A DNA stretch of 7,363 nt from a virus (Duplodnaviria; Heunggongvirae; Uroviricota; Caudoviricetes), in the IMG/VR virus record IMGVR_UViG_2529292836_000012, positions 1 to 7,363 of that record, one strand, 5' to 3'. Made by a program: the position numbers and the translations under genes. Shown here piece by piece: positions 2,813 through 3,169 of the stretch; the first letter of the stretch is position 1, and each line of letters starts with the position of its first letter. Below the pieces are notes generated by a model. That model saw only the letters and a program-made list of their open reading frames with translations. It had not been told where the DNA came from and searched no databases.

Positions 2813-2996
2813 CTGGCAGGTGAAAATCAGGTTTATTTATATATTTCAATTAATTGCAAACTGGTCTAATGACAGGGAGAAAAAAATATTGTACAGGTGA
2901 AAAGAGAAATAACTTTTAATTATCAATAAATTACCAAACATGCTGCCGCCGCCATGGAAATGCAAAAACTAGCCTTTTTCCGCGACGCTCCCGCCC
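2813..2996 (-). other. cos packaging site (cosN at about 2985-2996, IHF-like site, repeated candidate cosB elements)
   Basis: The minus strand reads ACGGGGCGGGAGCGTCGCGGAAAAAGGCTAGTTTTTGCATTTCCATGG, closely parallel to lambda cos (ACGGGGCGGCGACCTCGCGGGTTTTCGCTATTTATGAAAATTTTCCGG, recalled from memory). The predicted 12-nt cohesive end is GGGCGGGAGCGT. An IHF consensus match TATCAATAAATTA lies at 2921-2933. CAGGTGAAAA is directly repeated at 2817-2826 and 2894-2903, between cosN and the Nu1 start. Confidence 0.7.
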
Positions 2997-3169
2997 CGTG
3001 GCAGGCCACCCCACCGGAAGGACCCGCACAAATGAGAGCGTTTGTCATTAACATTTACAGATAAGATGACGTACATCATTGAAACGCCATTCAGCCATAT
3101 ACCGGCAGCATTCGTAGTTGCACTCCGTAACTCTGCGACTAAGGTTAAAAACATGGCCCTCTTTTGCCA

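Follow-up and report, generated by a model that had tools for sequence, protein, structure and literature searches.

A predicted lambda-like cos site upstream of DUF1441-type terminase genes in a prophage of the cdtI/Tritos/HannyBb group

In phage lambda, the cohesive-end site (cos) lies directly upstream of the terminase genes. Its cosB segment places a site for integration host factor (IHF) amid repeated binding sites for the small terminase subunit (TerS), in the order R3-I1-R2-R1 and with R2 inverted relative to R1. Among lambda-like phages the 7-bp cosQ is highly conserved, the cohesive overhang is conserved with it in its left half and varies in its right half, and in lambda the I2 segment is required for packaging termination (Feiss et al. 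2015, PMC4669245). Here we describe the corresponding region in a 7,363-nt stretch of tailed-phage DNA (hereafter, the window; positions 1 to 7,363 of IMG/VR record IMGVR_UViG_2529292836_000012). Judged from its sequence and by analogy, the region 2813-3025 is very probably where a lambdoid prophage belonging to the cdtI/Tritos/HannyBb group has its cos, with a proposed lambda-like mechanism. The site is real and built like that of lambda, but it is ordinary and essentially already known, being the start point of already published phage records.

The window is numbered opposite to the lambda map and its late genes lie on the minus strand. Read along that strand, the order at the packaging region is cosQ (3019-3025), cosN, cosB, TerS (2273-2800) and the large terminase subunit, TerL (216-2264). 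The whole site falls within a non-coding stretch, directly upstream of TerS and TerL and downstream of the lysis cassette, which is the placement expected of a lambda-like cos site. For comparison, relatives of this TerS were gathered from genomes and viral contigs. Variation among close relatives was profiled in 42 distinct sequences, and 19 cos regions from nine genera (E. coli, Scandinavium, Yersinia, Rahnella, Providencia, Proteus, Morganella, Xenorhabdus and Rosenbergiella) were aligned from position -50 to the TerS start codon.

The cosN core, CCACG/GGGCGGGAGCGT/CGCGG (2980-3001, minus strand; slashes mark the predicted nick positions), matches its lambda counterpart, TTACG/GGGCGGCGACCT/CGCGG, at 16 of 22 positions. 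The identity is complete at the two nick positions (9/9 and 6/6), so that the near-identity around the nicks claimed in the original prediction, which had been made by a model from the sequence alone, holds in a proper alignment. The strings ACG/GGGCGG and T/CGCGG, with the CG steps that flank both nicks, are the same as in lambda, invariant in the 42 close relatives and conserved across genera. From the similarity to lambda and the ends of public records, a 12-nt 5' cohesive end, GGGCGGGAGCGT (2985-2996, minus strand), is predicted; the nicks would fall at 2997/2996 on the minus strand and at 2984/2985 on the plus strand, and the right-end overhang would be plus-strand ACGCTCCCGCCC. This assignment of the physical overhang is made at the level of sequence, and at that level the overhang is that of a lambda-like cos site as described by Feiss et al. 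(2015, PMC4669245). It begins with GGGCGG as in lambda and is identical to GGGCGGCGACCT at 8 of 12 positions, the differing positions (7, 8, 9 and 11) all lying in the right half.

The likeness extends from cosN to cosQ, with 37 of 53 positions identical to lambda between -35 and +17. The cosQ-like heptamer GGGTCCT (3019-3025, minus strand), a putative packaging-termination signal, is the same as the lambda heptamer and lies 29 nt from the top-strand nick, compared with 30 nt in lambda. It is near-invariant among the close relatives and is found as GGGTCCT or AGGTACT, at an unchanged position, in the distant ones; the DNA of the right arm immediately upstream of it is mosaic. On the other side of the overhang, the block CGCGGAAAAAGGCTAGTTTTTGCATTTCCATG (2953-2984, minus strand) occupies the position of the lambda right cosN flank and I2. 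This is the best-conserved block over the nine genera and is almost invariant among close relatives, with 21 of 35 positions identical to lambda in a gapped alignment.

Variation of the overhang among relatives is mostly confined to positions 7-12, as described for lambda-like phages. In two IMG/VR contigs (L097 and L155) whose TerS and cosB are 99% identical, positions 7 and 12 of the overhang are changed (GGGCGGCAGCGG), and phage mEp460 (L170) has GGGCGGGAGCGG. Because such close relatives differ in their overhangs, mismatched cohesive ends are to be expected after recombination or cross-termination. In a separate observation, the anchors CCACG and CGCGG in the cos of Gifsy-2 (L177; CCACGGGTGGCTTCGGGCTCGCGGGAATCGGCT, around 230-270) are separated by 14 nt instead of 12. 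By simple anchoring this cos does not fit the 12-nt register, and its nick register may, from the sequence, differ from that of the other family members.

The predicted ends coincide with the ends of public phage records. Those of cdtI (AB285204 / NC_009514) and Tritos (OV696610) begin at GGGCGGGAGCGT (window 2996 downwards) and end in ...CCACG (2997). Tritos is prophage 3 of E. coli LF82 and yields infectious siphovirus particles (Tritos paper). The cos regions of cdtI, Tritos and HannyBb (PP925841) are 97.5-99.5% identical to that of the window and the TerS proteins 99.4% identical, whereas the DNA upstream of cosQ differs, with a mosaic boundary at about -30. For phage LLS, whose TerS belongs to the same family and is ~41% identical, a 12-nt 5' cohesive site is annotated in the matching register. 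In Hafnia phage yong2 the linear record opens with CGCGGGAAACGG, at the counterpart of base 2984, and has the 12-mer as its end, which indicates that this record was cut at the other predicted nick. The record of mEp460_4F5 (L171, LR595868.1), starting CCACGGGGCGGGAGCGCGG..., was considered as independent evidence of an end and rejected, as it is 3 nt short against all relatives: its positions 1-25 begin CCACGGGGCGGGAGCGCGGAAAA, without 3 nt of overhang and flank that all relatives have, probably an assembly artefact at the cohesive ends. The claim of a lambda-like cos with a 12-nt end was thus borne out, both by the position upstream of TerS and gpA-type TerL and by the cdtI and Tritos records that begin there.

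The TerS gene (2273-2800, minus strand) encodes a protein of 175 aa that was assigned by profile matches to DUF1441 (PF07278; E 1.8e-44, 151.7 bits against a cut-off of 35.1) and to phrog_141, its best PHROG (E 4e-65, more exactly 4.4e-65). The original prediction had called it Nu1-like. Membership of the Nu1 family (Pfam Phage_Nu1, phrog_57) is not what we found, since Pfam gives DUF1441 alone, BLASTP against lambda Nu1 was not significant (E 4.8), and a profile search of PDB sequences gave weak helix-turn-helix (HTH) matches at most. The two families do recognise each other reciprocally: TerS has a secondary match to the lambda Nu1 family phrog_57 (E 1e-9, residues 18-158), and lambda Nu1 matches phrog_141 (E 6e-8, residues 2-150). 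The AlphaFold model (pLDDT 78) has a strand-helix-helix-hairpin-helix arrangement (E16-18, H19-26, H30-39, E44-48, E51-55, H56-64) followed by three long helices, which in the model corresponds to the N-terminal winged HTH and helical region of a Nu1-type TerS. The best Foldseek matches of the domain were MerR-type winged-HTH proteins and a viral TerS DNA-binding domain (7lwr), all with E > 0.01; the Nu1 DNA-binding domain was absent from the top 50, in which no match had E < 0.001. As the BLASTP, PDB-profile and Foldseek results are weak, the link to Nu1 rests on the reciprocal PHROG cross-hits, to which the predicted winged HTH adds, and together they suggest a remote homologue. "Nu1-like" is therefore probably fair for how this TerS works and not for its family. 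The start codon is at 2800, according to the alignment of relatives and the Tritos annotation, with a Shine-Dalgarno motif (GGAG) at 2807-2810, and not at 2812.

Between cosN and TerS, the sequence diverges from lambda as had been predicted. The similarity of the cosB flank to lambda (0.435) is no higher than that of shuffled sequences (0.473 +/- 0.023), and the lambda R consensus CGTTTCC is absent from the flank toward TerS. The order and spacing of the parts are nevertheless alike. The perfect match TATCAATAAATTA (2921-2933, plus strand; genome bp 64-76) to the IHF consensus WATCAANNNNTTR, also foreseen, shares its strand with the lambda I1 region and is displaced from it by no more than about 7 bp (about bp 71-83 in lambda). 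It is preceded by the A/T-rich AACTTTTAAT, as a sequence-based IHF site should be, and is invariant among close relatives; two perfect matches to WATCAANNNNTTR were observed in the window against 0.19 expected. In the 19-sequence alignment, the conserved columns TAAYNNNTTGAT are the IHF consensus positions read on the other strand.

Three boxes accompany the IHF site. The R3-position box, GCGGCGGCAGCATGTT (2937-2952, minus strand; genome bp 45-60), lies where lambda has R3 (bp 50-65) and is the candidate primary TerS site. The distal box, TTTTCACCTGTACA (2890-2903, minus strand; genome bp 94-107), is a candidate accessory TerS site at the R2 position, and the proximal box, TTTTCACCTGCCAG (2813-2826, minus strand; genome bp 171-184), occupies the R1 position. 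The two direct repeats of CAGGTGAAAA that had been noticed are present exactly twice on the plus strand, at 2817-2826 and 2894-2903 and 77 bp apart, and are unlike lambda R sites. They are parts of longer boxes, the first copy of the proximal and the second of the distal box; a one-mismatch copy lies far off, at 390. The original prediction located the core of the site correctly within 2813-3000, and it overlooked the R3-position box and stopped short of cosQ. Between the distal and proximal boxes, a conserved block of putative function, CCCTGTCATTAGACCAGTTTGCAATTAATTGAAAT (2843-2877, minus strand), includes an IHF-like site with one mismatch, TTTCAATTAATTG (2844-2856, plus strand), and an invariant TGTCA (2870-2874); TGTCA and TGA are invariant columns across the nine genera.

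The 19 cos regions align almost without gaps, and in every one 196-197 nt separate the nick from the start codon (TerS starts at bp 197 in the window and at bp 191 in lambda). Their conserved blocks follow a single order: cosQ; CCACG or CCGAG; the 12-nt overhang, most variable at positions 7-12; CGCGGRAAAMGGCT..TTTT; ATTTYCATG with the R3-position box; TAAYNNNTTGAT; the R2-position box; TGTCA; the second, weaker IHF-like element; and YCACCTG(A/C)CAG just upstream of the ribosome-binding site. This last element, to which the proximal box belongs, is the most conserved of cosB across genera, and the proximal box has a single variant among the 42 close relatives. The R3-position box is conserved within the clade of the window, and from clade to clade it varies in step with the R1 box and the HTH of TerS.

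Boxes and TerS HTH sequences change together in four groups. The HTH sequence HRDTVKKRL goes with boxes CACCTGCCAG and an R3 box of the GGCGGCGGCAG type; NRGTVKKRL with CACCTGACAG, the pair GAGGTGACA/TGTCACCTC and the R3 box GTCAGCAGCAGGT; DRKTVRKR with GGACACC / GAGGTGTCC; and SEAFS.DRAT with boxes of the CATCAGGT type. Such covariation is the pattern expected of cognate TerS sites, like that of the lambda, 21 and N15 specificity groups, and at the sequence level it suggests that the boxes are read by the HTH. The groups described by Feiss and co-workers (lambda, 21, N15 (Monarch) and Gifsy-1) share with this family the common cosQ and left part of cosN, the variable right half of the overhang, and cosB repeats that match the cognate TerS recognition helix, which here would be reflected in the four HTH/box groups. 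They differ in that the TerS belongs to the Nu1 family where characterised and to DUF1441 here, and in that the present family has a 196-197-bp scaffold and an extra conserved block with a second IHF-like site.

The R2 position differs in orientation. In other genera it reads TGAGGTG-ACA, with its core flipped relative to the E. coli clade. The R2-position box and TGTCACCTCA make up a perfect inverted pair in Proteus-type relatives. In the cos regions of Providencia, Proteus, Morganella and Xenorhabdus (L016-L034), a perfect inverted pair, TTGAGGTGACAA ... TTGTCACCTCAA, spans genome bp ~96-132; its counterpart in the window is TTCACCTGTACAA ... CCCTGTCATTAG, the core of the first element being flipped in the E. 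coli clade. As a separate observation, the R3-position box resembles an R1 box that is inverted and interrupted by 6 bp, CTGTCAG[CAGCAG]GTC, or CTGGC[GGCGGC]AGGTC in L147.

The part of cos next to the nicks is shared more widely than cosB. The cosQ-cosN module, with GGGCGGGAGCGT and the ~35 bp after it, is identical in PhiR40_1 (L172), phi458 (L173) and L072-L077, where it is joined to another subfamily of DUF1441 TerS (~41% identical) and to other cosB repeats. A shared module next to differing cosB segments indicates a recombination boundary at about genome bp 35-45. A cosQ-cosN module of the same kind is shared with the second-subfamily group (mEp460, phi458, PhiR40_1, LLS and mEp213), which differs from the window in its ~41% identical TerS and in cosB repeats such as CATCACCACC or CATCATCAT. 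We tentatively suggest, with slightly more doubt than belief, that DUF1441-type terminases form several undescribed packaging-specificity groups on a rigid 196-197-bp cos scaffold, in which the R3, R2 and R1 boxes co-vary with the recognition helix, the R2 core is flipped between the E. coli and the Proteus/Providencia clades, and the cosQ-cosN-I2 module is freely exchanged. If true, this would be a natural series for the evolution of small-subunit specificity on a fixed architecture.

Shown here are how the site is laid out in sequence, how it is conserved and covaries across relatives, to which families the proteins belong, and that the predicted ends coincide with those of public phage records; the steps of the packaging route are drawn by analogy with lambda. 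The DUF1441-type TerS would bind cosB via its winged HTH, probably at the box in the R3 position (2937-2952) and at the two boxes that contain CACCTG (2890-2903 and 2813-2826), and IHF would bend the DNA at 2921-2933. The resulting assembly would anchor the gpA-type TerL on cosN, where two nicks placed 12 bp apart would give virion DNA with the 5' overhangs GGGCGGGAGCGT and ACGCTCCCGCCC. Packaging would then proceed from cosB into the terminase and head genes, and would stop at the next cos, aided by cosQ (3019-3025) and by the conserved block that adjoins cosN.

Several points count against this reading, and they concern the ends, the boxes and the fitness of this particular copy. With respect to the ends, no physical end determination was found in the literature searched. 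The LLS authors state that they inferred the ends of their record, for which they refer to Vahanian et al. 2017 and to a personal communication, and the Tritos paper states no method for the choice of the record start. In the full-text library searched, no phage paper contained the 12-mer in either orientation or its first 11 nt. Moreover, TerL is only 24% identical to lambda gpA, so that nick positions identical to those of lambda are an extrapolation. Headful (pac) packaging with a coincidental similarity to lambda cosN would be compatible with the missing end determination, from which alone it draws support, and we find it scarcely credible: it is already contradicted by a TerL with gpA ATPase and nuclease domains, by the conservation of cosQ, cosN and the adjacent block in register across genera, and by public linear records cut exactly at the predicted nicks.

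With respect to the boxes, the CAGGTGAAAA repeat is by itself weakly beyond chance, as a direct repeat of at least 10 nt also arose in 188 of 5000 dinucleotide-shuffled versions of the 172-bp cosB (p about 0.04), and an automated repeat search listed no direct-repeat family, although both exact 10-mers are there. Nowhere in cosB do the 42 close relatives vary more than at the distal 10-mer (C98T, n=5; C100G, n=9; T102A, n=1), and the T-run part of CAGGTGAAAA is not conserved in other genera. The notion of distinct repeated elements accordingly survives in part: both copies exist, and only the proximal one is conserved across genera. In addition, the two clearest boxes, the CACCTG boxes at the R2 and R1 positions, are direct repeats, unlike lambda with its inverted R2, and the R3 box is loosely related to both. 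The cos could thus be real while the CAGGTGAAAA copies are not terminase sites, the 10-mer being due to chance or AT-rich context and TerS reading the R3-position box alone, as in N15, whose simple cosB shows that a single R3 can suffice. The shuffles, the three different natural substitutions in the distal copy and the unconserved T-run all fit such an arrangement. We regard it as unlikely, because the proximal core CACCTG(A/C)CAG is the top-conserved cosB element over nine genera, and related TCACCT/AGGTGA motifs recur at set positions in each clade and vary along with the HTH of TerS.

The proximal box also lies 13-26 nt upstream of the TerS start codon, and a role in gene expression is conceivable instead. 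It ends 13 nt from the start codon and abuts the Shine-Dalgarno motif, and a partial copy in inverted orientation, GAGGTGTCA, overlaps this motif in Proteus-type relatives, all of which would suit a box (2813-2826) kept for autoregulation or translation-initiation context of the terminase genes and not for packaging. This is improbable in our judgement, more so than a TerS reading the R3-position box alone. No sigma-70-like promoter was found in 2700-3500, the lambda R1 at the equivalent position near the Nu1 start is a terminase site, and the core of the proximal box is common to the elements that flank the IHF site.

With respect to this copy, the TerL gene (216-2264, minus strand; Pfam GpA_ATPase and GpA_nuclease) has lost its 3' end to an insertion. 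Positions 1-232 are the end of an ISCro1 element (IS66 family), which replaces the last ~21 residues of TerL with SNRLI*, so that the protein ends in ...VSTPVKSNRLI* in place of ...VKKQKRKKTVTDDVNPWLTSGGWL*. The window is 99.3% identical to cdtI over 233-2996 without gaps, and TerL is 99% identical to the cdtI protein until window 233 and diverges from there; the TerL genes of cdtI, Tritos and HannyBb are intact. Over positions 1-600 the window agrees fully with E. coli NCCP 13717 (100% identity), where RefSeq annotates IS66 tnpA, tnpB and transposase followed by an 84-nt TerL remnant (pseudogene), and an element of this insertion sequence (IS) family interrupts the same TerL gene at another position in strain 120899. 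As the lambda TerL C-terminus docks on the portal, its loss here means that this prophage is probably unable to package itself, and the cos is then probably usable only with a terminase supplied by a related prophage.

Whether the cos of this genome is a relic, which would lie idle or serve only the terminase of a related prophage in the same host, appears to us evenly balanced. The IS insertion and the portal docking of the lambda TerL point that way, and the cos region occurs up to seven times per genome, which makes helpers plausible. Conversely, the cos, TerS and the remaining 677 TerL residues are 99-100% identical to those of active phages, which indicates a recent insertion, and the need for the TerL tail in this distant gpA homologue is extrapolated from lambda. 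A relic would moreover concern activity in this host and leave the identity of the element unchanged. The proposed definition of the virion genome ends would hold for the phage lineage, by the record ends; in this host it probably does not apply to a self-sufficient phage.

The site would mark the start and end of virion DNA for a very common group of E. coli prophages, which includes cdtI, a cytolethal-distending-toxin phage, and Tritos from strain LF82. At least 80% of the 271-bp cos region was detected in 876 of 5,426 complete E. coli genomes and parts of it in 2,192, with as many as seven places in a single genome. In conceptual terms, the site does not go beyond the lambda paradigm. As the RefSeq annotation at the locus reads "DUF1441 family protein" only, with no cos feature, the location of cos helps to orient and annotate these prophages. 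The cos type in turn helps to predict which co-resident prophages or islands could be packaged through each other's terminases, and the family comparison supplies candidate binding boxes for an uncharacterised small-terminase family, a modest by-product.

The remaining genes of the window lie on the minus strand upstream of the packaging region. A DNA methylase (5919-6968) is followed by three tRNA genes (5623-5869; Ile, Arg and Arg according to RefSeq in the matching genome) and by the lysis cassette of two holins and an M15 endolysin (4390-5478). After the endolysin come a few small open reading frames (ORFs), the non-coding stretch of ~590 bp, TerS and TerL. Between the lysis cassette and cos, an ORF of 130 aa (3393-3785; WP_000415817.1 in the matching genome) has no Pfam match. 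A repeat search also listed a 12-nt inverted repeat, 92% complementary, that brackets cos, with one arm in TerS codons 2-5 (2785-2796, CGCTCACATTTG) and the other just upstream of cosQ (3029-3040, CAAATGAGAGCG). It was rejected as a functional element, given that the sequence at the right-arm position in Tritos is unrelated, though the cdtI arm is similar.

In the unannotated stretch between cos and the last ORF of the lysis region, with no Rfam match in 2990-3420, two elements on the plus strand (3171-3213 and 3303-3347), antisense to the late genes, both end in CCGGTTTTTTATTT. The fold of the second is unremarkable (z -0.47), and the first forms a hairpin followed by a T-run (-13.5 kcal/mol, z -2.25); the two may be terminators of unannotated plus-strand transcripts.

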